Shown here: one piece after another, positions 7,591 through 43,452 of the stretch
Layout of the letters: each line of letters begins with the position of its first letter
Position numbering within the stretch: position 1 is the stretch's first letter
Made by a program: the position numbers and the translations under genes
DNA from: an uncultured Acidaminobacter sp.
GTDB taxonomy: Bacteria > Bacillota > Clostridia > Peptostreptococcales > Acidaminobacteraceae
DNA length: 64,000 bases
Assembly: GCA_963678925.1 (NCBI GenBank)
Contig: OY787533.1
Coordinates: 994,174-1,058,173 of the forward strand
Reading direction: 5' to 3'
Notes under the pieces: model-generated
The model's input: the letters and a program-made list of their open reading frames with translations, nothing else
Databases searched by the model: none
What the model was told of the DNA's origin: nothing

Positions 7591-9096
<1,506 letters not shown>

Positions 9097-23589: not shown

Positions 23590-25338
23590 TTATGCCTTCG
23601 TGTGGGGGTGTTCATGTATGCATAAGTCGACGAACTCGAAATTCACAACATCAAAAAGCCCCACATCTGTCAGCTTTAGCTCTGGTATAACTGGAAGCGC
23701 CAGAAATGCCAACAGCATAAATGGATCGATTTCCCGGTTCACACCAATGTCATAGGCACAGGCCATTAGAACCTCATGCTTGTCATCCATATCACTCAGC
23801 GGCTCATCTGACATGATTCCGGCGACCTGAAGCGGCAATGCGCCTGCAACCTCACCGTCTTTGATGACGACCAGCCCGCCACCAATCTCTTCAATGGCTC
23901 GTGCTGCAGCGGCTATGTTCTCATCTGTATCTCCGATGATAATCAGATTGTGGGAATCATGGGCAACCGTAGAGGCAATGGCTCCGTTTTTAAGTTCAAA
24001 TCCTTCCACCAGTCCCAATCCTACGTTCCCAGTCGCCTTATGCCGCTCAATGACTGCGAGCTTTAGAATATCCAGTTCCTTGACATACTCAAACTTGCCC
24101 TCCTTCATGCCCACCTTACGTGTAACATGCTCAGTCACAAGGGACTTCGGCATAATTTTCATGACACGGGCGATGTCCGACTCCATATGGAGTTCGAGGC
24201 TTGATTTATCAAATTTTCCAATGTTGATGGTATTCCTAACTCGGGGATCATCCAACGTTTGCACCTCAAAGAGCGCCTTGCCGCCGTCTGCAACTAACTT
24301 GCCCTTCTTGAACACCTTTTGCACCTCAAAGGTTCTTAAGTTGTCAATGACAATCAGATCGGCCAAATATCCAGGGGCTATCGCTCCTCTGTCATACAGC
24401 CTGTAGCACTCTGCGGCGTTGAGTGTTGCCATTCTAATGGCCGAAAGTGCCGGCAGCCCGCACTCCATGGCAAGACGCACATTGTTATCAATATGCCCAT
24501 CCTTAAGTATATCGCCAGGGTGCCTGTCATCCGTACAGAACAAGCATCTGCGCAGGTTCTCCTTCGAGACACCTTCCACCAGTGTCGTCAAATTGCGCGC
24601 TGCAGAGCCCTCCCTGATGAGAATGTACATGCCAAGTCGAAGCCTGTTAAGCATCTCTTCCACAGTTTCACATTCATGTTCGGTCCGCACCCCTGCAGAA
24701 ACATAGGCATTCAGTTCCGTTCCCGCAATAATCGGTCCGTGGCCATCGATTATTTTCCCGTGTTTCTCAGCCAGGTTGATTTTGTCAACAACTCTGTCAG
24801 CCCCGGATATAACTGCGGGATAATCCATCAATTCTCCCAGACCAAGCACACGGGGATGGTTCATCAACCTGGACAAATCCGCCGCATTCAAGACTGCACC
24901 AGCATTTTCAAAATCAGTAGATGGCACACAGGAAGGCAGCATGACAAAGACGTCCATGGGAATATCCTCGCTTGCTTTAAGTATATAGTCTATACCATCC
25001 ATGCCGCATACATTGGCAACTTCATGGGGATCAGCAATGATGGTCGTTGTGCCTCTTGGAACAATAGCCCTTGAAAACTGTTCAGGGGTTGCCATGGATG
25101 ATTCAATGTGTACGTGACCGTCTATAAGACCCGGTGCAACATATTTGCCTTCCAAGTCAATGATCTCTTCACCCTCATAGGTACCGCCTACACCAGCAAT
25201 TCTTCCGTCTACAACAGCAATATCACCACTCATGATTTCTTCGGTGAAGACATTGATAATTTTTGCACCTCTGAGAACCACGTCCGCTTTCTCACGTCCC
25301 GCAGACACCGCAATTCGCCTTTTGATTTCTTCTCTCAT
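23590..25338 (-). CDS. Adenine deaminase-family amidohydrolase, paralog 1
   Basis: ORF 23590..25437. Start placed at MREEIKRRIAV after AAGGGGGA. Metal-binding GLIDGHVHIESSM and Ade-type C-terminal domain. Confidence 0.85.
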   Translation of the reverse strand: MREEIKRRIAVSAGREKADVVLRGAKIINVFTEEIMSGDIAVVDGRIAGVGGTYEGEEIIDLEGKYVAPGLIDGHVHIESSMATPEQFSRAIVPRGTTTIIADPHEVANVCGMDGIDYILKASEDIPMDVFVMLPSCVPSTDFENAGAVLNAADLSRLMNHPRVLGLGELMDYPAVISGADRVVDKINLAEKHGKIIDGHGPIIAGTELNAYVSAGVRTEHECETVEEMLNRLRLGMYILIREGSAARNLTTLVEGVSKENLRRCLFCTDDRHPGDILKDGHIDNNVRLAMECGLPALSAIRMATLNAAECYRLYDRGAIAPGYLADLIVIDNLRTFEVQKVFKKGKLVADGGKALFEVQTLDDPRVRNTINIGKFDKSSLELHMESDIARVMKIMPKSLVTEHVTRKVGMKEGKFEYVKELDILKLAVIERHKATGNVGLGLVEGFELKNGAIASTVAHDSHNLIIIGDTDENIAAAARAIEEIGGGLVVIKDGEVAGALPLQVAGIMSDEPLSDMDDKHEVLMACAYDIGVNREIDPFMLLAFLALPVIPELKLTDVGLFDVVNFEFVDLCIHEHPHTKA

Positions 25339-25357
25339 ATTTTCCCCCTTGTACGCC

Positions 25358-26359
25358 CTAGAGAAATGTCTTGCCTGATTTTTCAATGGCTTTGAGTACC
25401 CGTTCCGGTGTTGCCGGCACTTCAAGAATCCGGACACCTATGGCGTCATATATCGCGTTGAGTATTGCCGGTGCGACAGGTACCATGACTGGTTCTCCAA
25501 TCCCTTTGGCCCCAAATGGCGCTGTAGATTCCGGCTCTTCAATAAGTTCCTTCTGAATTTCAGGTATATCCATGGATGTCGGGATAATGTATTTTGCAAA
25601 CTTGTTGTTTTTTATCGCACCCTGATCCACATTCAAGTCTTCATAAAGCGCATAGCCAAGTCCCATGACAAAACCGCCGTCAATCTGTCCCTCAACAAGC
25701 TCCGGATTAATCGCACGACCGACATCCTGGACGCAATAGGCTTTTGTAACATGTACCCTTCCCGTATCTGTGTCGACATCGACTTCCACGCCATATGCAT
25801 TAAAGGTGTATGGCCAGTACGGCGCACCAAGGCCCGTTTCGGGGTCCATTTGCGTCGTCTGGGCAATAAATTCCTCCGTTACGCTGAGTACTTCGTCCTC
25901 TTTTTCAAGACGGGTGGCCACAGCTTCAAGTGTCGTTCTCTTTTCAGGCAGCATTTCAAGCCAGATTTCCCCGCCAGCCGTTTTCAGACCAACTGAGGAG
26001 TTCAGCCCCATTTGCACCGCAGCATGCCTGAAGAGTTCCTCCTTAAAGGCCTTTGCTGCTTTAAGCACTGCATTTCCTGTATTGTAGGTCTGACGACTTG
26101 CAGCAGCGGTGCCTGAATCCCTGAAGGTATCGGTATCTTCACTGAGCATAACGACCTCGGCAGGGTCGATTTCGAAAACCTCTGCACACATTTGCGGCAT
26201 AATGGTTTTTGCCCCCTGTCCAACCTCGGTTGCACCCACACGTAAAATGATTTCACCGCTAGGACCCAGTTCAACCGTGGCTATGGAAACATCCGGAAAT
26301 CCGTTTCCATAACCCGTTCCATACCAACCAAGCGCAATGCCCTTTCCATGCTTAATCAT
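25358..26359 (-). CDS. Xanthine-dehydrogenase-family molybdopterin subunit, C-terminal half (NdhM-like medium subunit)
   Basis: ORF 25358..26368. Aldehyde oxidase/XDH Mo-binding C-terminal region (GQGAKT..., FGAKGIGEP). The ATG at 26359 overlaps the upstream stop as ATGATTAA. Confidence 0.85.
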   Translation of the reverse strand: MIKHGKGIALGWYGTGYGNGFPDVSIATVELGPSGEIILRVGATEVGQGAKTIMPQMCAEVFEIDPAEVVMLSEDTDTFRDSGTAAASRQTYNTGNAVLKAAKAFKEELFRHAAVQMGLNSSVGLKTAGGEIWLEMLPEKRTTLEAVATRLEKEDEVLSVTEEFIAQTTQMDPETGLGAPYWPYTFNAYGVEVDVDTDTGRVHVTKAYCVQDVGRAINPELVEGQIDGGFVMGLGYALYEDLNVDQGAIKNNKFAKYIIPTSMDIPEIQKELIEEPESTAPFGAKGIGEPVMVPVAPAILNAIYDAIGVRILEVPATPERVLKAIEKSGKTFL

Positions 26360-27614
26360 CCGTCCCACCGCCTTCCATCATCTTTTGAAGCGCATCCAGA
26401 CAGCGGATGAGCGGCACGCTTTCCGTAAGAACCTGTCCATTGGGTGTCATCGAACCCACCTTCATGCAGTTGATACGCCGGATTTCAAATGGGTCCATCC
26501 CAAGTTCAGCCGCCACACAGTCGATCTGCTGCTCATAGGCGATTGGCACCTGGGTTGCACCAAATCCGCGCATGGCACCGCAAAATGGATTGTTTGTATA
26601 AACAGCTATACTGTCCACTTTCACATTGGGGATTTCGTAGGGGCCTGGTACATGGACGCCGGCTTTTCTGAGCACATTGATTGCCCATGACGCATATGCA
26701 CCCGTATCACCGACTATGTAAGCCTCTGTCGCAATTATTTTTCCATCACGGCTTGCGCCAGTCTTCATTTTCATCGAGAGCGGATGTCTTTTCGAATGTG
26801 CATAGAAGGACTCCTCCCTGGAATAGGTGACCTTGACAGGACGCCCAGTAAGCAGGGTGGCAAGTCCGAGATGTATTTGCATGGTGATGTCTTCCCGTCC
26901 GCCGAAAGCACCGCCTACAATCGGATTTCTAATGATGACGCCGTCCTCTTCAAGGCCAAGGGCTTCGGCAACCTCAACACGGTCAAAATGCGGATATTGA
27001 GAAGACGCCACGATTACCAGCTTGTCCTCTTCCATATAGGACAAGCCACTCTCAAGCTGCAGAAAGACATGGTCTACAAAGGGTGAATAATAGGTGTTTT
27101 CAATAACCACATCGGCCTTTTCAAACGCCGCATCAACGTCCCCTCTTCTGCATTTATAGTGATAAATAATATTGGAAACATTATCATGCACCTGTACAGC
27201 GTCTGGCTTCATTGCCTCAAGAGGATCAAAAAGGGCAGGAAGCACTTCATACTCAATCTTGACCTTTTGTGCTGCAAGCTGTGCCTCTTCCTCCGTCTCT
27301 GCCACCACAAAAGCTATGGGGTCCCCAATGCGTCTGACTTTCTTTTCACAGAGGACTTCGTGGTCTTTGAACAAGACCCCGTGGTGGTTCATCACTGTAA
27401 CATCCTGTGCGGTGATGACTTTCAGCACACCAGGCATTTGCTCAGCCGCTGACGTGTCACAGGTAAAATAGGCGTGGGCCTTATCTGAACGCACCGTATG
27501 GCCATAGGCCATCCCCTCCATCTTCATGTCCTGAGGATACAGCGCCTGACCTGTCAGTTTGTCAACAGCGTCCTTTCTTCTATACCGTTTCCCAACGGTT
27601 TTGAATGTCGCCAT
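26352..27614 (-). CDS. Xanthine-dehydrogenase-family molybdopterin subunit, N-terminal half (NdhL-like large subunit)
   Basis: 420 aa. Has the a/b-hammerhead N-terminus (KDAVDKLTGQALYPQD) and the first Mo-cofactor binding region (GGAFGGRED). Confidence 0.85.
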   Translation of the reverse strand: MATFKTVGKRYRRKDAVDKLTGQALYPQDMKMEGMAYGHTVRSDKAHAYFTCDTSAAEQMPGVLKVITAQDVTVMNHHGVLFKDHEVLCEKKVRRIGDPIAFVVAETEEEAQLAAQKVKIEYEVLPALFDPLEAMKPDAVQVHDNVSNIIYHYKCRRGDVDAAFEKADVVIENTYYSPFVDHVFLQLESGLSYMEEDKLVIVASSQYPHFDRVEVAEALGLEEDGVIIRNPIVGGAFGGREDITMQIHLGLATLLTGRPVKVTYSREESFYAHSKRHPLSMKMKTGASRDGKIIATEAYIVGDTGAYASWAINVLRKAGVHVPGPYEIPNVKVDSIAVYTNNPFCGAMRGFGATQVPIAYEQQIDCVAAELGMDPFEIRRINCMKVGSMTPNGQVLTESVPLIRCLDALQKMMEGGGTDD

Positions 27615-27615
27615 T

Positions 27616-28104
27616 TTACGCCTCCTCGCTTGACTTCGAGTTTTTCTTCATTTCAGCAGCCAGCTTGACAGATGAAAGAATTTTGTCATATCCCGTACAT
27701 CTGCAGAGATTTCCTGAAATCGCCTGCTTTATATCGTCTTCACTTGGATTGTCATTTTTATCGAGAAGGGCTTTCGACGAAAGCACCATACCGGGTATGC
27801 AGAATCCGCACTGTACTGCGCCATTGTCTAGAAATGCCTGCTGAACCGGATCGAGTGCCTCCTCGCTTCCAAGACCTTCAATGGTTACAACATGCTTTTC
27901 ATGGCACTGCGCCGCAAGAACCAGACAGGAATCAACAGCACGCCCCTCCAAAATAACCGTACATGCGCCACATTCCCCTTCTCCACAGCCTTCCTTTGTG
28001 CCTGTAAGACCCAAGTCTTCACGCAGGAAATCAAGGAGGCGTAGGCCTGGTTGAATTTCCCTTTCAATCCAATCTCCGTTTACATTTATTTTAAGGCTGA
28101 ACAT
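27616..28104 (-). CDS. Xanthine-dehydrogenase-family [2Fe-2S] subunit
   Basis: ORF 27616..28119. Cysteine motifs GCGEGECGACTV, CGFCIPG and CRCTGY. Start probably at MFSLKINVNGD, 8 nt after GGAGG. Confidence 0.92.
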   Translation of the reverse strand: MFSLKINVNGDWIEREIQPGLRLLDFLREDLGLTGTKEGCGEGECGACTVILEGRAVDSCLVLAAQCHEKHVVTIEGLGSEEALDPVQQAFLDNGAVQCGFCIPGMVLSSKALLDKNDNPSEDDIKQAISGNLCRCTGYDKILSSVKLAAEMKKNSKSSEEA

Positions 28105-28984
28105 TTTTTGCGCCTCCATTCTCCCTAAGGTCTACAATTTTGAAGAGCACATTTTTTATAACACCACGTATGGCCTGCTTCTTATACGGCATAGAACTCC
28201 GACCGCTGAGCCGTTTCTCGATTTCAGCCTCGAAGGCATCGGCTGCCTTTTCAATCAGTGCAGTGTTTAAAAGTTCTCCTTCCAGCAAGGCTTCAAGTTC
28301 GTACTCCCGTGTCGGCGTCAGTCCAATGGAGCCGGATCCTATTCTGCAACACTTTATGTTGCGCTCATTATCAAGCTCGACATAGGCCGAGGCACTGATT
28401 CTAGAAATAGCCAGCGCATTTCTAAGGCCCAGTTTTTCAAAAGCCAGCAAACCACCAGCCTGGTCTATGTCTCGGAACCGAATATGCGTGATCATTTCCG
28501 TTGGTCTCAGGTCAACACGCCCTTTTCCCAAGTAAAATTCAGATAAGGGCACTTGACGTTTTCCATCTGCACATTCCAGCATAACTTCCGCATCCAGTGC
28601 AAGCAGCGGTGGTGCACTGTCAGCTGCAGGAGATCCATTCGCAATATTCCCGCCCAGTGTGGCGGCATTTCTTATTTGCGGGGACCCTACACTCTTGCAG
28701 GCCTCCCACAAACCTTGACAGGTGCTGCGGATTGTTTCATTTTCTACCACTTCAGAAAAAGTCACAAGACCACCTATCGTGACATATCCATCTTGAATTC
28801 GTATGGCCTTGAGTTCACGAACACTTGATATGTCTATAACCGCAGGGCATGTATTCTTCCCTTCTCTTACATGCACGAGTAGGTCTGTGCATCCAGCAGC
28901 AATTTGCGCCTTCTTGCCATACCTATTTAAGAGCTGTAGTGCTTCATCTACTGATGTCGCACGATAAAAATTCTCTATTTTCAT
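28091..28984 (-). CDS. Xanthine-dehydrogenase-family FAD-binding subunit
   Basis: 297 aa. FAD_binding_5/CO-dehydrogenase flavoprotein pattern (AAGCTDLLV, ATLGGNIANGSPAADS). Confidence 0.88.
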   Translation of the reverse strand: MKIENFYRATSVDEALQLLNRYGKKAQIAAGCTDLLVHVREGKNTCPAVIDISSVRELKAIRIQDGYVTIGGLVTFSEVVENETIRSTCQGLWEACKSVGSPQIRNAATLGGNIANGSPAADSAPPLLALDAEVMLECADGKRQVPLSEFYLGKGRVDLRPTEMITHIRFRDIDQAGGLLAFEKLGLRNALAISRISASAYVELDNERNIKCCRIGSGSIGLTPTREYELEALLEGELLNTALIEKAADAFEAEIEKRLSGRSSMPYKKQAIRGVIKNVLFKIVDLRENGGAKNVQP

Positions 28985-29212: not shown

Positions 29213-30529
29213 CTATTTCACAATCAGCGGAAGAATTAGCTTAAGCGCGAACAGGAAGGCAATGAAGAACGTCATTTTCGGTACTTCTTTTGAACGACCT
29301 GTAAATAGTTTCAGAAGAATGTAAGACATGATGCCCCACATGATACCTTCTGCAATGGAGTAAGCAAGTGGCATCATGATGATTCCAAAGAATGCTGGAA
29401 TTGATTCTGTAAAATCATCAAAATCAATTTCCTTGATTGGCGACATCATGAATAGACCTACAAGAATAAGCGCTGGCGCTGTTGCAGCTGAAGGAATAAT
29501 TCCAAACAGTGGTGCAAAGAACAGTGCCAGGAAGAAGAATACAGCTGTAGTAACAGCAGTAAGACCTGTACGTCCACCTTCTGCAACCCCTGCAGCAGAC
29601 TCTACGAAAGTCGTTACTGTTGATGTACCCAGACAAGCACCTACTGTCGTACCAACGGCATCGGCAAAGAGTGCTTTTTTAGCTTCTGGAAGCTTTCCTT
29701 CTTCATCGAGCATACCTGCTTTTGTAGAAACACCAATCAGTGTGCCAACTGTATCGAACATATCTACAAAGAGGAATGTGAAAAGAATGAAGATAAAATC
29801 AAACGAACCAACGTTTGACCATTCAAACGCGAACCAGATTGGTTTCGGTGGCATTGACACCAGCGATTCTGGAAGCTGAACAATACCGAATGGAATACCA
29901 ACGATTGTTGTAGCAACTATACCGATAAAGAGTGCTCCTTTAACGTCCATTGCCAGCAGAACACCCGTAAGAATGATACCGATGATCGCTACAAGTGGCG
30001 CGCCGCTTGTAATTTCACCTAGAGCCAGTGGAACACCAGCGCCCTGGACGATGATGCCTGCATTGTACAGACCGATGAAAGCGATAAACAGACCAATACC
30101 AACCGATATTGCGCGTTTGAGATTCAGCGGAATACAATTAAGTATGGCTTCGCGGATATTTAAGAATGTCAGGATTAGGAAAATAATACCTTCAACGAAT
30201 ACTGCTGTAAGTGCGAACTGCCAAGTATATCCCATACCAAGAACGACTGTAAATGCGAAGAATGCATTAAGCCCCATACCTGGTGCAAGTGCAAAAGGCA
30301 GGTTAGCGTATAGCCCCATTACAAGTGTTGCAACAACAGATGCCAGAGCTGTCGCAGTAAATACTGAACCAAAGTCCATTCCCGTTGCAGAAAGCATGCC
30401 CGGGTTAACTGCAAGTATGTATCCCATCGTCATGAAAGTCGTCAAGCCAGCAATAATCTCTGTGCTTGCATTCGTACCATGTTCCTTGAGCTTAAAGAAC
30501 TTTTCAAGGAAACCTGCTTGATTAGTCAT
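29213..30529 (-). CDS. NCS2/AzgA-type purine (adenine/guanine/hypoxanthine) permease
   Basis: ORF 29213..30601. Start placed at MTNQAGFLEKFFKLKEHGTNASTEIIAGLTTFMTMGYILAVNP, the typical N-terminus of this family. Confidence 0.88.
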   Translation of the reverse strand: MTNQAGFLEKFFKLKEHGTNASTEIIAGLTTFMTMGYILAVNPGMLSATGMDFGSVFTATALASVVATLVMGLYANLPFALAPGMGLNAFFAFTVVLGMGYTWQFALTAVFVEGIIFLILTFLNIREAILNCIPLNLKRAISVGIGLFIAFIGLYNAGIIVQGAGVPLALGEITSGAPLVAIIGIILTGVLLAMDVKGALFIGIVATTIVGIPFGIVQLPESLVSMPPKPIWFAFEWSNVGSFDFIFILFTFLFVDMFDTVGTLIGVSTKAGMLDEEGKLPEAKKALFADAVGTTVGACLGTSTVTTFVESAAGVAEGGRTGLTAVTTAVFFFLALFFAPLFGIIPSAATAPALILVGLFMMSPIKEIDFDDFTESIPAFFGIIMMPLAYSIAEGIMWGIMSYILLKLFTGRSKEVPKMTFFIAFLFALKLILPLIVK

Positions 30530-30683
30530 TAAATGACCCCCTGTTTTTCTTTGAGTCTCCGTCCCCCTGCGTCCAAGACCTGTCCTCCTTTCTTTATTCA
30601 ATTTGACGGAAGTATGTCCAATCCATTCTAACGCCTACACTACACCTTTGTAAATGGAGATTTCGGGATTTAAACAACTTTAA

Positions 30684-32498
30684 TTATTCGCCTATTGTTG
30701 GCGGTAGAATTTCAAAATTCTCAACATCAACAATTCCCTTATCGGTAATCTTCCATTTTGGACTTGTCGAGAGTGCCAGGAACGACAAATGCATAAACGG
30801 CGCATGGATTTTACAACCTAAATCTTCTTTTGCTTTTCTTTCAAGATCGCTGATTTTCCGGCTTACTTCTGACCCTTTCAGCTGATCTGTAATGAGCCCG
30901 CCCACCGGAAGCGGCAGTTCATCGACAACACGACCACCCTTTGCGAGCGCTATGCCGCCACCCATGGATATGACCCTATTTACAGCCACAGCCATGTCCT
31001 CATAGCTGGCACCAGTAACCAGGATGTTGTGGGTATCATGGGCAATCGACTCTGCAATGGCACCCTGCTTGATGCCGAAGCCTTTGACAAAGCCCTTGCC
31101 GATATTTCCGTTTCTGCCATAGCGTTCAAGACAGTGCATAGGGAGGACGTCCTGATCCACATCTGGCTCGACCACACCAGCACTTACCTTCAGCACTGCC
31201 TCAAGTGCATCCGATAGATTCTGGTCTGGTATGACACCAATCACATTGCAGCGTGCAGTCTTCCCTGTTGCCTCAACAGAAAGTTCAGCTGCAGTTGTTG
31301 GCGTTCTTTTAACTGAGTTCTTAACTGTGTCAGGATATGTATAGACGGGAATGTCTATGAGCATTTCCCCACCGGCCGCCATGAGTTCTCCTTCAATGAA
31401 GACCGCATCGACAACCATGTTGTCCAAATCGCTTATAATTGCAATATCCGCTAAATTTCCAGGAAGCAAAGCGCCCCTGTCCTTAAAGCCGAAATATGTT
31501 GCCGGATTTATTGTACACATTTGAATCGCTTCTACAGGCGACACGCCCTCAGCGATCGTCCGTTTGACAATTTCATTCATGTGGCCCAGCTTTTCAAGAT
31601 CCTCTGCAACCATATCATCTGTTGCGAGCACAGCGCGTCTTGAGTCCATGCCCTCTTCGGTAATGGCGCGTACGCACTCTGCCATATTACGCTGTGTTGA
31701 TCCTTCGCGCATGAAGACATACACACCATTTCTCAGTTTCTCAACCGACTCGGCCTTGGTTGTTGTCTCGTGACAGGAACAGGTTCCGCCAGTTGCGATG
31801 ATATGCGCAGCCAGATTCTTTCCAAAAAGCTCAGGCGCATTGCCGTCAACAACCTTGCCAAGACTTCTGGCATATGCCGTTGAGGCCAACAGGTCATCAA
31901 TGATTTCCGGTGTGTGATTATAGACATGCTGTGCATTGGAGAAACCCTGAAGTTCCCCAATACCAATGATATTCTTGTAATTGAGCAGGTCTTCCATGTC
32001 CTTTGAAGTGACATCTACACCTGCTGTTTCAAGGCGCGGACAATCTGGTGTTAGCGCCGGAACAACGAGGTGTACATGGTTGGGTACAACCCCTGCCTCG
32101 TCTGCCATGGCTTTCATGCCCACAGGTCCCAGGGCGTTCCCGATTTCATGCGGATCAGCGACAAGAGTCGTTGTTCCTGAAGGTATGGAGAGTCTTGCAA
32201 ACTCTGATATTGTAAGCATTGAGCTCTCAAAATGCATGTGTGAGTCGATAAAGCCTGGCGCAAGATACTTCCCGCTTACATCTATGACCAATGTTTTAGG
32301 GCCGACAAGAGACGCGTCATCGCTGAGCGCAAGGACATATTTGCCCTTGATTGCCAAGTCAACCTTAACGAGTTCACGTGTCACGGTATTTACCACATGA
32401 CCGCCTTGAAGGACCAAATCGGCATAATCGTGCTCACCCATAAGCGCATCGATCATGCGTCTATAGTCGATGGCTTGTTTTATGACACTTGGATTCAA
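30684..32498 (-). CDS. Adenine deaminase-family amidohydrolase, paralog 2
   Basis: 604 aa. GFIDSHMHFESSM and the same two-domain architecture as paralog 1, but clearly divergent in sequence. Confidence 0.85.
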   Translation of the reverse strand: MNPSVIKQAIDYRRMIDALMGEHDYADLVLQGGHVVNTVTRELVKVDLAIKGKYVLALSDDASLVGPKTLVIDVSGKYLAPGFIDSHMHFESSMLTISEFARLSIPSGTTTLVADPHEIGNALGPVGMKAMADEAGVVPNHVHLVVPALTPDCPRLETAGVDVTSKDMEDLLNYKNIIGIGELQGFSNAQHVYNHTPEIIDDLLASTAYARSLGKVVDGNAPELFGKNLAAHIIATGGTCSCHETTTKAESVEKLRNGVYVFMREGSTQRNMAECVRAITEEGMDSRRAVLATDDMVAEDLEKLGHMNEIVKRTIAEGVSPVEAIQMCTINPATYFGFKDRGALLPGNLADIAIISDLDNMVVDAVFIEGELMAAGGEMLIDIPVYTYPDTVKNSVKRTPTTAAELSVEATGKTARCNVIGVIPDQNLSDALEAVLKVSAGVVEPDVDQDVLPMHCLERYGRNGNIGKGFVKGFGIKQGAIAESIAHDTHNILVTGASYEDMAVAVNRVISMGGGIALAKGGRVVDELPLPVGGLITDQLKGSEVSRKISDLERKAKEDLGCKIHAPFMHLSFLALSTSPKWKITDKGIVDVENFEILPPTIGE

Positions 32499-32500
32499 AG

Positions 32501-33951: not shown

Positions 33952-33990
33952 AATAATCCTCCTTAAATTCTGTGCACGATGCACCTTCAA

Positions 33991-34351: not shown

Positions 34352-34681
34352 CTACTTTCTTTTACTTTGAACAAATGCCTCCAGATTCATTTTGTTTCCC
34401 GAGTCCGTACGTGGTACACGACTTCTGGAAACAGATTTTTCAGGACCTTTATTGTATGTTCCCGCAAAATGTTCGAGGGCATCCTTTTTCCTGCTGGTAC
34501 TCACGGGCTTTCTCTGCTTGACAGGGTCAATCAGCTGTTTTAAAACACCCTCTTCATCCTGTGAGAGATGGCTGTGTCCTTGCCCTTCATAGCTGTCTAT
34601 GGTCGTCATTGTCTCTGCAGTCGGCCCGAGTTTCTTGTCGACAATGCGCTGCATGATTCTAAGCGTCAATGCATTTGCCAT
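34352..34681 (-). CDS. Small basic hypothetical protein inside the shell operon
   Basis: 109 aa with no recognisable domain. The N-terminal ANALTLRIMQRIVDKKL could form an amphipathic helix. The remainder is K/R/S-rich and probably disordered. Confidence 0.4.
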   Translation of the reverse strand: MANALTLRIMQRIVDKKLGPTAETMTTIDSYEGQGHSHLSQDEEGVLKQLIDPVKQRKPVSTSRKKDALEHFAGTYNKGPEKSVSRSRVPRTDSGNKMNLEAFVQSKRK

Positions 34682-34698
34682 ATGTCTTCCTCCTAACT

Positions 34699-34968
34699 CT
34701 AAGCCTCAAATAGGATGTCCATATCCCCTTCAGGTCGTGGAATGACATTGATGCCAATAACATCTGCCATGTGCGCTGCACCATCCTGCGCAGCAGCAAT
34801 TGCCGAGTTGACAGCTGCTACTTCGCCTTCAATAACGACACTGATGACACCCGACCCAACCACATTGAAGTCTTTTATTGTCACATCGGCTGACTTCACC
34901 ATAATATCTGCTGCATAGCACGCAGCGACATAGCTTCTGATTTCAAAAAAACCAAGTGCCTTCTTCAT
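34699..34968 (-). CDS. BMC shell hexamer protein (BMC-H), divergent
   Basis: 89 aa. KKALGFFEIRSYVAACYAADIMVKSADVTIKDF...VIPRPEGD. Confidence 0.85.
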   Translation of the reverse strand: MKKALGFFEIRSYVAACYAADIMVKSADVTIKDFNVVGSGVISVVIEGEVAAVNSAIAAAQDGAAHMADVIGINVIPRPEGDMDILFEA

Positions 34969-36335: not shown

Positions 36336-36355
36336 GCTATCACCTCCTTATTCAT

Positions 36356-36910
36356 CTAAGTCCACCTTCTAAAAAGCCCGCCATCCAGTCCCAGCTGGTC
36401 GAGTATACGCCCCACCATGATTAGAACCAGATCGTCAATTGACTCAGGCTTGTGATAAAACCCCGGTGACGCAGGCATCATGACGGCACCTGCACGAGAA
36501 AGCTTAAGCATGTTTTCCAGATGGATATCGGTAAGCGGCGTTTCCCGAGGAACAACCACGAGCGGTCTTTTCTCCTTCAAAGTGACATCGGCTGCACGCT
36601 GTACCAGATTTGTGCTCAGACCGTTTGCGACGGCGCCAAGTGTATTCATGGAACAGGGTATAATGACCATACCATCGGTTTTGAAGGACCCGCTGGCAAT
36701 GGCAGCTGCAAGATTGTCATTCTCGTATACCACCGATGCCAAGGACGCCACCTCGCTGATTGTAAAATCGCATTCGTGCTCAAGGACGTATGCGCCCATT
36801 CTGGAAACAGCCACATGGGTTTCTATATCCAGCTCCCTTAAGGCCGTTAGGAGCGCAACTGCATAAATGCTGCAGCTGCCCCCCGTAATTCCGACCACGA
36901 TTCTTTTCAT
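36356..36910 (-). CDS. ubiX: Flavin prenyltransferase UbiX (prFMN synthase)
   Basis: 184 aa. MKRIVVGITGGSCSIYAVALLTAL ... IIPCSMNTLGAVANG. Confidence 0.9.
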   Translation of the reverse strand: MKRIVVGITGGSCSIYAVALLTALRELDIETHVAVSRMGAYVLEHECDFTISEVASLASVVYENDNLAAAIASGSFKTDGMVIIPCSMNTLGAVANGLSTNLVQRAADVTLKEKRPLVVVPRETPLTDIHLENMLKLSRAGAVMMPASPGFYHKPESIDDLVLIMVGRILDQLGLDGGLFRRWT

Positions 36911-36912
36911 GA

Positions 36913-37524
36913 CTATTCCACTTTATTGGCTTGATCCCCGCCGCCTAACCACGGATCTTCGCCTTTTTCCCATGCCTGGATATACTCATCCAGATCCATA
37001 ACTTTTGTGAAGATTGAAAGGTCTTTCAGACCATATTCATGCATTTCATCTGTTTTTGACGCACAGCAGTCAGCCAGCGTAATAACCTTATAAGCGTTAT
37101 ATAGGGCATCTGCCGCAGTCGATCGAACGCATACGTTTGTCCAGACACCTGTCACAACCACTGTATCGAGATTTTCTTCTCTCAGATAAAGGTCCAGGTC
37201 TGTATGTGCGAACGCCGAGTGACGACGCTTTGGAATTCTGTACTCTTCCCCTTCAGGGTATAGTTCCTGGATGAAGTCAGAACCCCAAGTTCCAGCAACT
37301 GCATGCACAGGACGCACTCTAAAATCAGCATCATTCTTTCTGTGTGCCTCTTGAATATGGATGAGCTGAATGTCATCCTTGCCTTCTGCGTTTCTTGCGC
37401 GAACCCATTCAAAGAGCTTTTGCAGATTCGGGATGATGTCATCGCCGCCTGGACAGCGAAGCGGTGCCTTCTCACCGATAAAATCATTCAGCATGTCGAT
37501 AATTACAATACCATGTCGTGGCAT
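36913..37524 (-). CDS. Isochorismatase-family cysteine hydrolase (nicotinamidase / N-carbamoylsarcosine amidase-like)
   Basis: ORF 36913..37593. Start placed at MPRHGIVIIDMLNDF. D (IIDMLND), K (PKRRHSAF) and C (VWTNVCV) triad positions are present. Confidence 0.8.
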   Translation of the reverse strand: MPRHGIVIIDMLNDFIGEKAPLRCPGGDDIIPNLQKLFEWVRARNAEGKDDIQLIHIQEAHRKNDADFRVRPVHAVAGTWGSDFIQELYPEGEEYRIPKRRHSAFAHTDLDLYLREENLDTVVVTGVWTNVCVRSTAADALYNAYKVITLADCCASKTDEMHEYGLKDLSIFTKVMDLDEYIQAWEKGEDPWLGGGDQANKVE

Positions 37525-37662
37525 TTGATTCACTCCTTCTAACCGTGTATGCATCACATTCGTTTTCATAACGATGTGCGTGAATTTTCTCAATTGACTT
37601 CTTGTTGACGCTATTCTGATAATTTAATAGATGACAGGTTGCTGCAGACTCATCTGAGCCAC

Positions 37663-39228
37663 TTAGTCATTGACGCTTTTGTAAGTGATTTTCTTATCAA
37701 GTTTTTGGATACTCTGACGTTTAACCCACTTACCAAAGCCTGGATTCACCATGATCCCCTTGATTCCGTTGACTTCACCCTTCACCTTTTCAGGATGTTC
37801 TTTACGGTAGCTCACTTTATACTCTTCCGACCAGTTTTCTTCAGTTGTGTTGAAGACTGAGTCCCAGTCATTGAACTGTGGCAGTACGCCTTCTTCGCCG
37901 TCGCAGTAAACCAGGTTTCCGCGGACAATCGTCTTGACCGGTTTGCCTTTTAGCTTCATGCCGTGCAGCGGATTGTACTTGGCCATGGTAACTTGTTCCT
38001 TCTGGTCAATTGTCCACTCGCGCTCAAGATCAATAACGGTCAAATCAGCGTCTGAACCAATATACATGGCACCTTTTTTAGGATAGAGTCCCATGTGCTT
38101 GGCAGCGTTAGTTGACGTAACCTCAACAAGCTTGCTCAGTGAGATGCGTCCTTTATTGTATCCTTCTGAAACAACAATCGGTACCATGGTCTCAACACCA
38201 GGTATACCAGGGAACGCAGTCCAGATATCTCGACCTGCCTTTTCAGATTCTATTTCGTATGGTGCATGGTCAGTCGCTACAAAATCAATGTATCCATTTC
38301 GAAGTGCTTCCCAGTGCATTTCATTGTCTTTTTTTGTTCTGAGTGGCGGTGCGATTTTTGCGTAGGCACCATGCTCTGTCATTGCTTCCTGATAATTCAG
38401 GGTCAAATAATGCGGACACGTTTCAGCCGTCACATCAAGACCGCGCAGTTTAGCTTCCCCTACCAATTTGGCGCCAATGCCTGTCGACATATGTACGATA
38501 TGAAGTCTGGCACCTGTGTGCTCTGCAAAGCTGATTCCCAGCTCAATCGCCACTTTTTCTGCCAGTTCCATTCTTGCTTCAGCCCAGGCTGGTCCATCCA
38601 TGCGACCCTCTTCACGGAACTTATTCACATAGAAATCGCACATTGCAAAGTTTTCAGCATGTATTCCAACAGGCAGGCCTGTCTTGGAAACCGCTGCAAA
38701 GCATTCCAGCATTTCCGGATCTGTAACACGCGGATATGTAGGTACTGATGGTGTCATGTAAACCTTGAAAGCAAGAACACCTTCATCGGCCTGTTTCTGA
38801 ACATTGTCGAGCCAACCCCGTCTGACATCCTCACCTGTCACACCGCCCCACAGACCAAAATCACATAAAGCCTGCGGCTGCCAGTGCTTAATTTTTTCAT
38901 GAAGCTGTTCTACACTTCTTACTGAAGGTACCGAACAGCAAGGCATATCAACAACTGTGGTCACGCCGCCAGTAACTGCTGCAGCAGAACCTGTCAATGT
39001 CGTCTCACGGTGGTCGAAGCCCTGGAACATAAAGTGAGTATGCGAGTCAATACATCCCGGTATCGTCAGATTGCCTTCAGCATCAATCACTTCTTCAAAC
39101 TCTATACCTTCAAGTGTGTCAACGAAACCTGCAATTTTCTCGTCTTTCACTAGAATATTGGTCAGGACCGTGTCATCTCCCTGAGGGATTCTCGCGTTTT
39201 TCACGATAACATCGTACTTCATTCCCAT
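37663..39228 (-). CDS. Cyclic amidohydrolase (dihydropyrimidinase/allantoinase/hydantoinase-like)
   Basis: 521 aa. Has DSHTH, AFKVYM (carboxylated-Lys position), GIHAEN, LHIVHMS and ATDHAP. Carries an insertion near the C-terminus relative to what I expect for ~450-460-aa family members. Confidence 0.85.
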   Translation of the reverse strand: MGMKYDVIVKNARIPQGDDTVLTNILVKDEKIAGFVDTLEGIEFEEVIDAEGNLTIPGCIDSHTHFMFQGFDHRETTLTGSAAAVTGGVTTVVDMPCCSVPSVRSVEQLHEKIKHWQPQALCDFGLWGGVTGEDVRRGWLDNVQKQADEGVLAFKVYMTPSVPTYPRVTDPEMLECFAAVSKTGLPVGIHAENFAMCDFYVNKFREEGRMDGPAWAEARMELAEKVAIELGISFAEHTGARLHIVHMSTGIGAKLVGEAKLRGLDVTAETCPHYLTLNYQEAMTEHGAYAKIAPPLRTKKDNEMHWEALRNGYIDFVATDHAPYEIESEKAGRDIWTAFPGIPGVETMVPIVVSEGYNKGRISLSKLVEVTSTNAAKHMGLYPKKGAMYIGSDADLTVIDLEREWTIDQKEQVTMAKYNPLHGMKLKGKPVKTIVRGNLVYCDGEEGVLPQFNDWDSVFNTTEENWSEEYKVSYRKEHPEKVKGEVNGIKGIMVNPGFGKWVKRQSIQKLDKKITYKSVND

Positions 39229-39462: not shown

Positions 39463-41133
39463 TTAGAACAAACCAACAATTTCTCCATCTTCGAGAATAT
39501 CAATCTTGTTTGCAGCTGGAACCTTTGGCAGACCAGGCATACGCATGATGTCGCCTGTCATTGCAATCAGGAATCCAGCACCTGCTGATGCCTTCACTTC
39601 ACTGATGTTTACAGTAAAGCCACTTGGACGACCAAGCAGTGCAGGGTTGTCAGACAGTGAGTACTGTGTCTTTGCCATACAAATTGGCAGATCACCCAGT
39701 CCGTCTTCCTCGAACTTCTTGATATCCTTAAGTGCCTTGCTTGAGAATTTCACACCATCAGCACCGTAGATTTCCTTAGCGATTTTCTCGATTTTTTCCT
39801 TTGCAGGAAGCTCAAGATCATAAAGTGGAGAGAAGTGTGCCTTGCCAGACTCTGCAACCTCGATTACCTTCTCAGCAAGCTTCACGCCGCCTTCTCCGCC
39901 TTTAGCCCAAACTTCAGAAAGAACTGCATCCGCACCCATTTCACGACAACGATCTTCAACAAAAGTAAGCTCTTTGTCTGTATCTGTTGGGAATGCGTTG
40001 ATTGCAACAACCGCAGGTACACCGAACTTCTGAACGTTTTCGATTTGCTTTTCCAGGTTGCCGAAACCAGCTGCAAGTGCTTCCATGTTTTCTTCACCAA
40101 GCTTGTCCTTCTTAACACCGCCGTGGTTCTTAAGCGCTCGTACTGTTGCTACGATAACAACCGCTGCAGGCTTAAGGTCCGCATAACGACACTTGATGTT
40201 GAAGAATTTCTCAGCGCCAAGATCTGCGCCGAATCCAGCCTCTGTTACGACATAATCAGCAAGTTTCATTGCCAGTTTTGTTGCAACAACTGAGTTACAG
40301 CCATGCGCGATATTCGCGAACGGACCGCCGTGAATCAGTGCTGGTGTATTTTCAAGTGTCTGTACAAGGTTAGGCATCAGGGCATCTTTAAGAAGAAGTG
40401 CCATTGCGCCAACCGCATCCAGCTCACCAGCCGTAACCGGCTTCTTGTCATATGTGTATCCAACAACCATTCGGCTCAGTCTAGCCTTCAGGTCTTGCAT
40501 ATCTGTCGCAAGGCAAAGGATTGCCATGATTTCTGATGCAACAGCTATATCAAATCCATCAACACGTGTCACACCATTGCCTTTTTTACCAAGACCAATT
40601 GTGATTTCACGAAGCGAACGGTCATTCATATCGATTGCACGTCTCCAAAGAATACGCTTTGGATCGATGTTCAGCTTGTTTCCTTGGTGCAGATGATTGT
40701 CAAGAAGTGCTGCAAGAAGATTGTTTGCAGTTGTCACGGCGTGGATATCGCCTGTAAAGTGCAGGTTGATATCATCCATAGGAACAACTTGTGCGTGACC
40801 GCCGCCAGCTGCACCGCCCTTAACACCAAAGCATGGTCCAAGAGATGGCTCGCGAAGTGCTGTAAATGTCTTCTTGCCAATCTTGTTAAGACCCATTGAA
40901 AGACCAACGTTTGTTGTCGTCTTGCCTTCACCTGCAGCAGTCGGATTGATTGCTGTAACCAGAATCAGTTTTGCATCAGGTGCATCTTTATAACGGTCCA
41001 TGACATCTAGATGGATTTTCGCTTTATACTTCCCGTAAAGCTCCAGATCATCCTCAGACAGTCCTAGATTTGCTGCAATCTCCACGATTGGCTGCATCTT
41101 TGCTTCCTGTGCAATTTGAACATCAGTTTTCAT
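39463..41133 (-). CDS. fhs: Formate--tetrahydrofolate ligase
   Basis: 556 aa. [16 protein letters not shown]-loop, full-length FTHFS. Confidence 0.97.
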
Positions 41134-41375: not shown

Positions 41376-42308
41376 CTAGTCTTCCATCAGGTGTGTTTCC
41401 ATGATTGAGGATACATTGAAGTTTTCAAGGCCGAGGAAATACTCAAGAGAGTTCAGCAGATATTCCAGCTTGACTGGTCCAACTATTTCAGACCCTGTCA
41501 CAGCAACGCCATATCGTGCCGCTTCAGACTTTACAAAATTGAAGGTCCTGTACAGAGGCGTCTTGCCGCAGTCGAACATGTTCATTGATACGACAACCCC
41601 TTCGTGGTCTGGGAACTTGAGTCCAACAGAACGCACTGTTGAGAATCCGCCCGACGGACCACGAACCGCCTTCGCAATTTTCTTGGCAATGGACAGATCT
41701 TCCGTTGCCAGGAATACATTGTAAGCAGTCAGACCTTCCATATCTGCACTGACAATCGTTGCACCCATTTTAGGGTCCAGCTTGCCATCTTTTGAAATAT
41801 CAGGCTTTCGCGCATCACGGTCTGGATGATTTTCATCTTCCAGGAGCGCCTTCAGACCTTCATATTGTCCTTTTCTTATGTATCCAAGCGCCTTGCGCTC
41901 TTCACTTCTTGAGTTGACGCCTGAGAAGAAAATTGGTACATTGTGCTTCTCATGAAGTTCTGCGCCAATTTCTTCTGCCAGTGCCTTTACCTCATCAATA
42001 TCGATATTCTTGAACGGGAACAGCGGAATCGTATCCTGTCCACCAATTCGAGGATGCGCACCTTCCTGGTCTCGCATATCTATAAGCTCATAGGATTTCG
42101 CAGCCATGGCCATCATAGCCTTTTTCAAAGGACCGGGTTCACCGATACAGGTAATGACGGTTCTGTTGAAATCATGTTCCGGCTCATAACTGATCAGCTT
42201 GACACCTTCAACTTTTCTAACCTCGTCAACAATTGCTTCAATGACGTCCTTGTTTCGTCCGTCACTGAAATTTGGAACTGCAAGTATGTATTTCTTGCCA
42301 CCTGACAT
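41376..42308 (-). CDS. Formiminotransferase (FTCD N-terminal type; glutamate/glycine formimidoyltransferase)
   Basis: 310 aa. ILAVPNFSDGRNKDVIEAIVDEV and a two-subdomain FT architecture. No fused cyclodeaminase domain. Confidence 0.88.
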   Translation of the reverse strand: MSGGKKYILAVPNFSDGRNKDVIEAIVDEVRKVEGVKLISYEPEHDFNRTVITCIGEPGPLKKAMMAMAAKSYELIDMRDQEGAHPRIGGQDTIPLFPFKNIDIDEVKALAEEIGAELHEKHNVPIFFSGVNSRSEERKALGYIRKGQYEGLKALLEDENHPDRDARKPDISKDGKLDPKMGATIVSADMEGLTAYNVFLATEDLSIAKKIAKAVRGPSGGFSTVRSVGLKFPDHEGVVVSMNMFDCGKTPLYRTFNFVKSEAARYGVAVTGSEIVGPVKLEYLLNSLEYFLGLENFNVSSIMETHLMED

Positions 42309-42762
42309 GATTTGACCTCCCTTTATTTTACCATCTTTTTATGCACTTTCACCAAATAAGTATCCACCTTGGCACAATACCCCTCAACGCTTTGCCCTAA
42401 ACGGGTATTCACTCTGCCGCATCTTAGCCCTTTTACAAGGTCCATTGTCTATTTTTGATAAAGCGAGCGAATATTTTGAATATTCAACGCGAAAAGTTTG
42501 TTTCATTTTGATAAGGGTCAAAATAGGTTTTTTTTGAGAAAATGGTTATAACACAAAGCTATTGAGTACATAATATAGTGAATCATTCATTTCGATAATG
42601 TTAAAACTCAACAAAGATTCGCATAAGTGTTTGTTTTTTAAAAAAATTCTAAATACTTCTAATTATTAGAAAACACGTTCCACTTGCAGTGTCATTACCA
42701 ATTCACCACGTATTTTCACACGCATATGCGCAAGAACAACTCAAGGAAAGGGGTTAATTATA

Positions 42763-43452
42763 TTGAAGCTTATTGACCTGTCACAGGAGATTTTTCAGGG
42801 AATGTCTGTATTTCCAATGCATCAGCCTACTTTTATAATGACCAACATGACACACGAGGAAAATATGAAGCAAACAGGGTCTACTAAGTTGGGCTTTTCG
42901 GCTCGAAATCTGCTTATAAGCGAGCACGGCGGAACACATAGCGATGGCGTCTGGGAGTACAAGCCATCGGGTCAGACCATTGATAAAATGCCCATGGAAT
43001 ACTTCTGGGGCAGTGCCATTTGTGTTGATTTGACAGCTATTCCCACAAATAGATACATAGAACCTCGCGATTTGGAGCAGGCAGTCAGGAAATCAGGACA
43101 GGAAATTCGTGAGGGCGACATTTTCCTAATGTATACGGGCCACTACGATAGAAATTTTGGAACAGACAAGTGGCAGACTGAATATACGGGCCTTTCCTAC
43201 AAAGCTGCAAAATGGCTGGCCGAAAAAGGGGTTGTCAACATTGGTGTAGATGCTCCAGCCATCGACCATCCAAGTGACCCGGATTTTTCTGGGCATATCA
43301 TCTGCGGTGAGTACGATATTACAAACACAGAAAACCTGTGCTGTCTTGACAAGGTAGTCAACAAAAGATTCCTATATTTTGGACTGCCTTTGAAAATTCG
43401 AGATGGTTCCGGATCTCCAATTCGTGCTGTAGCCCTTCTTGATGAGGCCTAA
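42763..43452 (+). CDS. Cyclase-family metal hydrolase (kynurenine-formamidase-like)
   Basis: 229 aa. TTG start 9 nt after AAGGAAAGGGG. HGGTHSD motif. Divergent from the purine cluster promoter region. Confidence 0.75.
   Translation: MKLIDLSQEIFQGMSVFPMHQPTFIMTNMTHEENMKQTGSTKLGFSARNLLISEHGGTHSDGVWEYKPSGQTIDKMPMEYFWGSAICVDLTAIPTNRYIEPRDLEQAVRKSGQEIREGDIFLMYTGHYDRNFGTDKWQTEYTGLSYKAAKWLAEKGVVNIGVDAPAIDHPSDPDFSGHIICGEYDITNTENLCCLDKVVNKRFLYFGLPLKIRDGSGSPIRAVALLDEA

Follow-up and report, generated by a model that had tools for sequence, protein, structure and literature searches.

The 64,000-nt stretch of DNA analysed here (the window) comes from an uncultured Acidaminobacter sp. (contig OY787533.1 of assembly GCA_963678925.1). 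It carries, at positions 23590-43452, a cluster of purine-degradation and shell genes that is a real member of an already catalogued type of bacterial microcompartment (BMC) locus, known as BUF1 or Xau. In all likelihood, the region is a complete locus of this type and codes for the oxygen-independent 'xanthinase' (Rabinowitz) fermentation of purines, with a protein shell around part of the route. The locus type, the domain identities of the genes and their conserved synteny were observed directly, as described below.

The cluster consists of 19 open reading frames (ORFs), all on the minus strand and running from 42308 to 23590, and one divergent ORF on the plus strand at 42763-43452. Most neighbouring genes overlap or are separated by tiny gaps; the exceptions are 235-243 nt around the formate-tetrahydrofolate ligase gene (fhs) and 229 nt before the genes of a xanthine dehydrogenase (XDH)-type enzyme. 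The bounds of the cluster were set at 23590 and 43452 because the flanking genes are unrelated, namely those for an OGG glycosylase, HD-GYP/EAL proteins and GroEL on one side and for FapA and GAF proteins on the other. Families were called with Pfam and with NCBIfam equivalog cutoffs. The Pfam scan covered the 20 cluster ORFs and 30 flanking ORFs (50 in total), a few window ORFs of 75-94 aa not being submitted. A first-pass annotation made from the nucleotide sequence had described the same 20 ORFs, and the ORF map reproduced their coordinates and strands. Each of its domain calls was matched by Pfam and NCBIfam, including the shell profiles: three ORFs match BMC-H (PF00936) and one matches BMC-P (PF03319).

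Loci of this kind were listed as a 'BMC of unknown function' by Axen et al. in 2014 (via PMC6620236). Ravcheev et al. (2019) reconstructed the Pricer/Rabinowitz anaerobic xanthine pathway for them by homology only, named the locus Xau with Amet_4568-4587 of Alkaliphilus metalliredigens QYMF as the reference, and proposed it as a third BMC paradigm (PMC6620236). The catalogue of Sutter et al. (2021) contains 46 BUF1 loci and 55 BUF1B loci, the latter in Bacilli, and notes the proposed xanthine role (PMC8217296). Its profile hidden Markov models (HMMs) with names ending in _buf1 cover UbiD, isochorismatase, Adenine_deam_C and the permease, and a generic HMM covers the cyclase (PMC8217296). All five catalogue enzymes of BUF1 (UbiD, isochorismatase, Adenine_deam_C, Xan_ur_permease and cyclase) were found in the cluster by Pfam. 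In the shell trees of the catalogue, BUF1 already includes Acidaminobacter DSM 2784 and the two Gottschalkia species, and its shell clades include H_seafoam for BUF1 and H_treeGreen for BUF1B (PMC8217296). BUF1 and not BUF1B is indicated indirectly for the present locus: the permease gene lies downstream as in BUF1, whereas it lies at the start of BUF1B loci, and the hosts of BUF1B are Bacilli, whereas the present host is a relative of Clostridium, not Bacillus. The genes of the pathway are described as 'only recently identified', and their characterisation is credited to Tong et al. (2023, Cell Chem Biol 30:1104), by PMC12507026 and 10.1101/2025.04.24.650524. These citing papers call the route the 'xanthinase pathway' and place it in Clostridia and Bacilli (PMC12507026); their accessible text makes no mention of microcompartments (PMC12507026, 10.1101/2025.04.24.650524). 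The first-pass annotation had read the region as purine degradation combined with a shell, which agrees with the published Xau/BUF1 interpretation and with the conserved synteny. It had also pointed to a xanthine type in a BMC catalogue; such a type exists, and the locus belongs to it. The novelty that it implied does not hold, as the locus type was catalogued from 2014 to 2021 and the enzymes were characterised in 2023.

The A. metalliredigens locus, fetched via its amidohydrolase ortholog, has the same 15 genes in the same order from the divergent cyclase gene to the permease gene, that is, cyclase, FTCD, FTHFS, amidohydrolase, isochorismatase, UbiX, UbiD, BMC, unknown, BMC, BMC, flavoprotein-like, EutN, adenine-deaminase-like and permease. 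As determined by tblastn, its recognisable genes are 53-89% identical to those of the window, whereas the flavoprotein-like protein is just 26% identical and the small ORF gave no tblastn match. Both loci are without an aldehyde dehydrogenase. They differ in that the XDH genes and a bona fide adenine deaminase gene directly follow on the same strand in the window, and in that PucR and FTCD_C genes are located immediately upstream in A. metalliredigens, whereas PucR is ~11 kb off and FTCD_C is not in the window here. The small unknown protein is 109 aa in length here and 183 aa in A. metalliredigens, and the amidohydrolase here has an insertion of ~50 aa before its conserved C-terminal tail.

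Synteny was surveyed further by tblastn of the 20 window proteins against 84 fetched loci, which range over Acidaminobacteraceae, Peptostreptococcaceae (Romboutsia, Paraclostridium), Tissierellaceae, Alkaliphilus, Natronincola and others. Sixty loci extend at least 7.5 kb downstream of the amidohydrolase gene, and 56 of them have the full set of eight core genes (isochorismatase, UbiX, UbiD, three BMC-H, BMC-P and the adenine-deaminase paralog). The layout UbiD/BMC-H/small ORF/BMC-H/BMC-H/ORF/BMC-P was the same in 61 of 62 mapped loci, and BMC-H 1 was located directly 3' of UbiD in 61 of these 62. Among the 67 loci that include 4 kb or more of upstream flank, 63 have the cyclase gene, and among the 55 that include 10 kb or more of downstream flank, 43 have the permease gene. 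The classical obligate purine fermenter Gottschalkia purinilytica carries the complete core and the shell genes on contig LGSS01000029, so the gene neighbourhood, whose conservation had been proposed as a check in the first-pass annotation, is retained in that organism as well; a second amidohydrolase copy is found on another of its contigs, near PucR, FTCD_C, cyclase and FTCD genes. The closest record to the cluster is OY762511.1, found in a genome-collection scan, with an identical (100%) amidohydrolase and 95-100% identity for the other cluster proteins; close relatives are another Acidaminobacter metagenome-assembled genome (MAG), Fusibacter sp. JL216-2 and Marinisporobacter balticus. Three loci of the survey, from Tissierellaceae/Tissierella MAGs, are composed differently. 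L041 and L044 have amidohydrolase, isochorismatase, shell and XDH subunit genes, but within reach there is neither UbiX nor UbiD nor the adenine-deaminase paralog; in L055, the genes for amidohydrolase, isochorismatase, BMC-P, the adenine-deaminase paralog and XDH subunits are present, and UbiX, UbiD and BMC-H gave no match. These may be second, differently composed shell loci.

Table 1. Features of the cluster, with positions in the window, profile matches and candidate roles.
Feature	Position	Strand	Evidence and candidate role
Cyclase-family metal hydrolase	42763..43452	+	PF04199, 1e-33; divergent; candidate 4-imidazolone hydrolase giving N-formiminoglycine
Divergent intergenic region	42309..42762		Consensus-like -35/-10 sites on both strands; presumed promoter/operator for the operon and the cyclase gene
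Formiminotransferase	41376..42308	-	FTCD_N/FTCD, 4e-54; TIGR02024, 287.9 bits (cutoff 221)
Formate-tetrahydrofolate ligase (fhs)	39463..41133	-	PF01268 FTHFS, 1e-276, full length
Cyclic amidohydrolase	37663..39228	-	Amidohydro_1; dihydropyrimidinase/allantoinase-like; candidate xanthine amidohydrolase ('xanthinase')
Isochorismatase-like cysteine hydrolase	36913..37593	-	PF00857, 1e-43; candidate 4-ureido-5-imidazolecarboxylate amidohydrolase
UbiX flavin prenyltransferase	36356..36910	-	Flavoprotein, 9e-48; TIGR00421, 238 bits (cutoff 109); prenylated flavin mononucleotide (prFMN) for UbiD
UbiD-family decarboxylase	34965..36335	-	UbiD N, core and C domains; candidate 4-amino-5-imidazolecarboxylate decarboxylase
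BMC-H shell hexamer protein 1	34699..34968	-	PF00936, 2e-18; overlaps UbiD stop codon
109-aa protein	34352..34681	-	No family; largely low-complexity, with three conserved short motifs of amphipathic character; candidate adaptor between shell and cargo
BMC-H shell hexamer protein 2	33991..34335	-	PF00936, 3.5e-21; charged C-terminal tail
BMC-H shell hexamer protein 3	33676..33990	-	PF00936, 2e-30; PduA/EutM-like
275-aa accessory protein	32822..33649	-	PF02441, 1e-9 (weak); TIGR02536 eut_hyp, 1.5e-8 (weak); flavoprotein-like
BMC-P pentameric vertex protein	32501..32797	-	PF03319 EutN_CcmL, 3e-30
Adenine-deaminase paralog 2	30684..32498	-	Adenine_deam_C and Amidohydro_1; candidate 4-aminoimidazole aminohydrolase
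NCS2-family nucleobase permease	29213..30601	-	PF00860 Xan_ur_permease, 1.5e-43
XDH-type molybdenum hydroxylase, 4 genes	25358..28984	-	Pfam; would interconvert hypoxanthine, xanthine and urate
XDH FAD subunit	28091-28984	-	FAD_binding_5/CO_deh_flav_C
XDH 2Fe-2S subunit	27616-28119	-	Fer2/Fer2_2
XDH Mo-N subunit	26352-27614	-	MoCoBD_1
XDH Mo-C subunit	25358-26368	-	MoCoBD_2
Adenine deaminase 1 (paralog 1)	23590..25437	-	TIGR01178, 636 bits (cutoff 472.5); bona fide adenine deaminase, adenine to hypoxanthine

The purine fermentation of clostridia goes back to Rabinowitz and Barker in the 1950s. Its chemistry comes from the literature, as does the enzymatic characterisation of an orthologous cluster. 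The enzyme class of each step of the xanthinase pathway is present, as four hydrolase families and a UbiD/UbiX decarboxylase; every step between xanthine and formiminoglycine has its candidate enzyme, and a formiminotransferase is there as well. The permease would import purines, and adenine deaminase 1 and the XDH-type molybdoenzyme would bring adenine, hypoxanthine and urate to xanthine; these feeder steps are probably cytosolic. The dihydropyrimidinase-like amidohydrolase would then open the pyrimidine ring of xanthine to give 4-ureido-5-imidazolecarboxylate (step 1), from which the isochorismatase-like cysteine hydrolase would take off the carbamoyl group, leaving 4-amino-5-imidazolecarboxylate, NH3 and CO2 (step 2). 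UbiD, with prFMN from UbiX, would decarboxylate this product to 4-aminoimidazole and CO2 (step 3). Adenine-deaminase paralog 2 would convert 4-aminoimidazole to 4-imidazolone (step 4), and the cyclase-family hydrolase would open the imidazolone ring to N-formiminoglycine (step 5). The formiminotransferase would transfer the formimino group to tetrahydrofolate (THF), yielding glycine and 5-formimino-THF (step 6). Cyclodeaminase and cyclohydrolase steps would be encoded outside the window, after which the formate-THF ligase would convert 10-formyl-THF to formate with a gain of ATP (step 7). The enzymes of steps 1 to 3 are candidates proposed from family chemistry and gene adjacency. Paralog 2 and the cyclase are the natural candidates for 4-aminoimidazole deamination and 4-imidazolone opening, and genomic context suggests that the formiminotransferase acts on N-formiminoglycine, with glycine as the product, rather than on the glutamate derivative.

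The nearest relatives of these proteins fit the step chemistry: L-hydantoinase and allantoinase, carbamoyl/ureido hydrolases, UbiD enzymes for heteroaromatic acids with a five-membered ring, adenine deaminase and lactam/formamide hydrolases. The closest PDB entry for the 521-aa amidohydrolase is the L-hydantoinase 1gkr, with allantoinase also near, and the protein scores below all allantoinase, hydantoinase and dihydroorotase equivalog cutoffs of NCBIfam. It is 68-74% identical to Gottschalkia proteins and 68% identical to that of A. metalliredigens. Xanthinase candidates fall into length classes: the short form, in Alkaliphilus, Natronincola and Crassaminicella, has 471 aa, and the longer forms, in Acidaminobacter, Tissierella and Gottschalkia, have ~515-566 aa. 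The long forms have an insertion of 45-65 aa just N-terminal to the C-terminal tail (alignment columns 447-509), and the tail itself, G-x-G-x-F-V-K-R-Q-S-I-Q-x-L, is kept in all length forms. The isochorismatase-like hydrolase matches PDB entry 3hb7 at 5e-108, an entry annotated only as isochorismatase hydrolase; after it come N-carbamoylsarcosine amidase, RutB and biuret hydrolase, which are all carbamoyl/ureido hydrolases. Because the alignment to 3hb7 begins only at residue 24, the true start of this ORF is probably Met24 (37524). UbiD is closest to PDB entry 6h6v (2e-99), which we take to be a furandicarboxylate decarboxylase. Paralog 2 is 33% identical to adenine deaminase 1 and reaches 465.8 bits with TIGR01178, slightly below the cutoff of 472.5. 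Its HxH, DPHE and TDD motifs, presumably the metal-site motifs of the adenine deaminase family, align with those of the Agrobacterium tumefaciens enzyme (3nqb). The closest solved relatives of the cyclase-family hydrolase are kynurenine formamidase and isatin hydrolase. Among the feeder genes, the XDH genes match XdhB, XdhC, PucD and the Se-dependent XDH best in NCBIfam; owing to the division of the Mo subunit into two, none of these matches reaches its equivalog cutoff. Adenine deaminase 1 has a GTG start that overlaps the Mo-C subunit gene by 80 nt and is probably over-extended.

Such distances to named enzymes leave room for a different substrate. The cluster might degrade another heterocycle, such as furan, pyrrole or imidazole carboxylates, nicotinate or pyrimidines, with the purine genes as mere neighbours. 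Among the cluster enzymes, only FTCD, UbiX and adenine deaminase 1 score above their NCBIfam equivalog cutoffs, all others falling below theirs, and the public names point elsewhere: UbiD homologs are called 2,5-furandicarboxylate decarboxylase in the JGI annotation, and the amidohydrolase is called dihydroorotase or allantoinase. We consider this highly improbable, given that the permease, XDH, two adenine-deaminase-family genes, FTCD and fhs repeatedly co-occur, that the cluster is found in obligate purine fermenters, and that PucR and FTCD_C genes adjoin it in A. metalliredigens (L001) and G. purinilytica (L084). Moreover, the xanthinase cluster has been biochemically characterised according to the papers that cite this work. 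Purine fermentation by the xanthinase route therefore remains the preferred assignment. The 2,8-dioxopurine pathway, the reductive uric-acid pathway of gut bacteria, is likewise anaerobic purine catabolism that starts with an XDH-family molybdoenzyme. It uses YgfK, YgeX, YgeW and YqeA-type enzymes and ends in pyruvate, no shell is mentioned in the accessible text, and its authors state that the two routes are distinct (10.1101/2025.04.24.650524; PMC12507026). No candidates for YgfK, YgeX, YgeW or YqeA were seen in the general Pfam scans of the 20 cluster ORFs, in which these families were not searched by name.

The three BMC-H proteins and the BMC-P protein would form a shell round part of the pathway. 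BMC-H 3 matches the PduA and EutM structures at ~1e-38 and is the most conserved shell gene, with typically ~80-95% identity across loci. Neither further BMC-domain genes nor a second shell locus were found in the 64-kb window. The shell is homologous to those of the Pdu, Eut, Grm and Cut metabolosomes (PduA/EutM-like BMC-H, EutN/CcmL-like BMC-P), the PF02441/TIGR02536-type accessory protein is shared with Firmicute Eut loci, and the presumed logic of trapping reactive intermediates would be common to both. Canonical metabolosomes, however, have a signature enzyme that makes an aldehyde and a core of aldehyde dehydrogenase, phosphotransacylase and alcohol dehydrogenase, none of which was found in the cluster or the flanking ORFs scanned. 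No aldehyde dehydrogenase (PF00171), PduL or phosphotransacylase was found among the 50 ORFs in the Pfam scan, as the first-pass annotation had observed for the aldehyde dehydrogenase/phosphotransacylase core. In contrast to those systems, the chemistry proposed here is hydrolytic and decarboxylative, with no aldehyde intermediate and no NAD/CoA recycling. The enclosed part of the pathway most probably would include at least the UbiD and deaminase steps and would confine the labile aminoimidazole and imidazolone. These two steps are placed inside by gene position, because their genes directly flank the shell genes; paralog 2 sits after BMC-P in related loci as well. The hypothesis that the shell traps these two intermediates is shared by the first-pass annotation and Ravcheev et al.

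Several points weigh against a complete, enclosed xanthinase pathway. No experiment demonstrating formation of a BUF1 shell or enclosure of the enzymes was found in the literature, and a 2024 PNAS paper still writes of 'the proposed Xanthine degrading BMC', which leaves encapsulation hypothetical. No BMC-T protein is encoded in the 64-kb window, whereas the catalogue gives a satellite PduT-like BMC-T for Acidaminobacter DSM 2784 (PMC8217296). No encapsulation peptide was recognisable on any enzyme by a motif position-specific scoring matrix (PSSM) or by terminal hydrophobic moments, a further difference from canonical metabolosomes. With a PSSM built from the N-terminal motif of the 109-aa protein, the best enzyme was UbiX with a score of 6.2, compared with a shuffle maximum of 13.8 and 30.6 for the 109-aa protein itself. 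The terminal moments of UbiD, paralog 2, isochorismatase, cyclase and FTCD were unremarkable (0.48-0.58). As for the pathway, Ravcheev et al. assigned two steps the other way round by gene order, with the cyclase as the enzyme of the first ring opening and the dihydroorotase-like enzyme as that of imidazolone opening (PMC6620236). Neither an FTCD_C cyclodeaminase nor FolD was found among the 50 ORFs in the Pfam scan, in line with the first-pass annotation, which had seen neither. In Gottschalkia acidurici 9a, the amidohydrolase and cyclase genes are apart from shell genes, with none within 10 kb of the amidohydrolase; this strain is not a counter-example, because the catalogue lists a BUF1 shell gene, Curi_c11990, elsewhere in its genome (PMC8217296). 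In the cluster itself, no Rfam family reaches its gathering score and there is no purine riboswitch. The nearest PucR-family regulator gene (54440-56098, minus strand) is ~11 kb away, with unrelated genes between.

Some of these points would be expected if the shell genes were an evolutionary relic, or if their products formed open scaffolds or sheets, with the enzymes in the cytosol. The shell set is minimal, with three BMC-H, a single BMC-P and no BMC-T in the window; none of the enzymes showed an encapsulation peptide, and no image or purification of a BUF1 compartment was found in the literature. On the other hand, the shell ORFs are intact and strongly conserved from Acidaminobacteraceae to Tissierellaceae and Alkaliphilus, above all BMC-H 3, their order and spacing are alike in 61 of the 62 mapped loci, and the pentamer gene, useful only for vertex closure, is always kept. 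We give a relic or an open scaffold a very small chance; a closed shell round part of the xanthinase route is preferred.

Two accessory proteins are encoded between the shell genes. Three BMC-H genes were mapped in 61 loci, and 60 of these have an ORF of 70-225 aa at the position of the 109-aa protein. The protein has no Pfam or NCBIfam match and just 8 HMMER matches in 1.84 billion representative proteins, and its family is recognisable only from gene position and short motifs. An N-terminal motif, NPLARVIMNNI-KK, with the consensus NPLARVIMNNISKK, is present in all 60 positional orthologs. The central motif L-S/T-x-x-EE-x-LL-x-x-II is matched as a strict pattern in 38 of 59, and a C-terminal motif, I-T-L-E/D-E-A-x-x-x-I-K, is held in common. 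The three motifs are joined by variable low-complexity linkers, and the protein is fast-evolving and probably disordered.

The position of the 275-aa protein is occupied by an ORF in all 61 of these loci. In its AlphaFold2 model (mean predicted local distance difference test score 77.5), residues 3-12 form an N-terminal helix and, after a disordered linker, residues 34-193 form a confidently modelled HFCD/UbiX-fold domain, with EpiD, UbiX and PPC-decarboxylase as top Foldseek matches; a second linker leads to a small C-terminal domain at 224-272. The C-terminal domain, of ~45 aa and with the sequence ITPLAKD, is kept in nearly all 61 loci. A short accessory protein of 110-146 aa is encoded between BMC-H 3 and BMC-P in loci of Romboutsia, Paraclostridium and other Peptostreptococcaceae. 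These short forms (L010, L011, L012, L015, L026, L029-L031, L037, L043 and L071) are without the flavoprotein-fold domain and keep the N-terminal amphipathic helix and the ITPxAKD C-terminal domain. The existence of such forms indicates that the flavin-like domain is dispensable for the role of the accessory protein.

In both the 109-aa and the 275-aa protein, the N-terminal helix has a hydrophobic moment of 0.80, compared with a 99th percentile of 0.68 for 11-mer windows of the cluster proteins. Encapsulation peptides of Pdu and Eut systems have moments in the same range. The sequences suggest that the two amphipathic helices may tether or organise cargo. It is conceivable, although we would not count on it, that cargo targeting in BUF1 relies on two dedicated organiser proteins encoded between the shell genes and not on enzyme-borne encapsulation peptides. 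Such a solution would resemble the carboxysome scaffolds CsoS2 and CcmN, in a catabolic, non-aldehyde BMC. No description of this organiser role was found in the accessible literature, and it may be an undescribed detail of the locus type. Two other candidates were set aside. The amidohydrolase has a conserved, moderately amphipathic C-terminal tail (moment 0.65), which was not called an encapsulation peptide because C-terminal tails in this enzyme family also mediate oligomerisation. The 275-aa UbiX-fold protein as a specific handler of prFMN was dropped as the leading idea because its homologs occur in ethanolamine and other BMC loci, and because the short forms without the flavoprotein domain co-occur with UbiD in Romboutsia and Paraclostridium.

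The same proteins bear on what the shell might contain. The pathway could be right while the shell encloses either the whole hydrolytic route, including a slow xanthinase, or only UbiD, whose prFMN it would protect or mature together with the UbiX-fold accessory protein, instead of trapping aminoimidazole and imidazolone. Xanthinase is slow, with a kcat of 0.1 per second as given in the citing papers (PMC12507026), and a shell would raise the local concentration. The xanthinase-candidate tail is conserved after a variable insertion, UbiX and UbiD are always encoded directly 5' of the shell genes, and a second UbiX-fold protein with an N-terminal helix is encoded between BMC-H 3 and BMC-P. UbiD as the only cargo is at odds with the presence of PF02441-type accessory proteins in many BMC types without UbiD: the family TIGR02536 belongs to ethanolamine loci, and the BMC catalogue has nine PF02441 HMMs. 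Moreover, UbiD is still there in Romboutsia and Paraclostridium, where the accessory protein has no flavoprotein domain. A cargo of this kind seems unlikely to us, and confinement of the UbiD and deaminase steps would be the more natural role of the shell.

Purine induction of the cluster is plausible from its neighbours in related genomes, and it stays unproven because the cluster has no riboswitch and PucR is ~11 kb away. The only purine riboswitch in the window (9317-9419, minus strand) is located upstream of guaB (IMP dehydrogenase, 7591-9096) and the GMP synthase gene (5687-7231); as it stands before guaB alone, the organism would use it for purine biosynthesis and not for the degradation cluster. 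A 12-bp GC-containing hairpin without a clear U-tract (29142-29170, minus strand) was found between the permease gene and the first XDH gene. It may attenuate read-through and so make the XDH genes and adenine deaminase 1 a separately tuned unit.

Other elements of the window were recorded beside the cluster. A full-length cobalamin riboswitch (116.7 bits; 23349-23525, minus strand) lies 65 nt 3' of the stop codon of adenine deaminase 1. No ORF of at least 50 aa follows it on the same strand; 2.1 copies of a 130-nt tandem repeat (93% matches) lie at 22792-23064, and then the OGG glycosylase gene at 22726. The riboswitch may thus be an orphan, or what remains of a lost B12-regulated gene. A second cobalamin riboswitch (57492-57667, minus strand) upstream of a CobT-type phosphoribosyltransferase gene (56287-57345) and a thiamine pyrophosphate riboswitch (16557-16654, minus strand) upstream of an NMT1/THI5-type ABC transporter operon (12985-16440) are ordinary. 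Positions 1-6000 of the window have a low GC content of 35-37%, compared with ~45% elsewhere, and contain a Mutator-family transposase gene (1110-2333), two family-less ORFs (2776-4212) and a phage-type integrase gene (4589-5608) adjoining guaA. This part is probably an integrated mobile element.

Taken alone, the present copy is of limited weight: with it, the catalogued type is known from one more Acidaminobacter genome, and its architecture is seen to be conserved. For the formation, contents and purpose of a shell in this locus type, an uncultured MAG is no easier to test than cultured hosts with the same core, such as A. metalliredigens, G. purinilytica and Paraclostridium bifermentans, and the conserved small adaptor-like protein provides a concrete handle for experiments on BUF1 compartments. 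Enzymes of this locus type bypass uric acid without oxygen and have already been exploited in engineered probiotics for gout models. If BMCs have a third functional class, neither carboxysome nor aldehyde metabolosome, BUF1/Xau is its best candidate.

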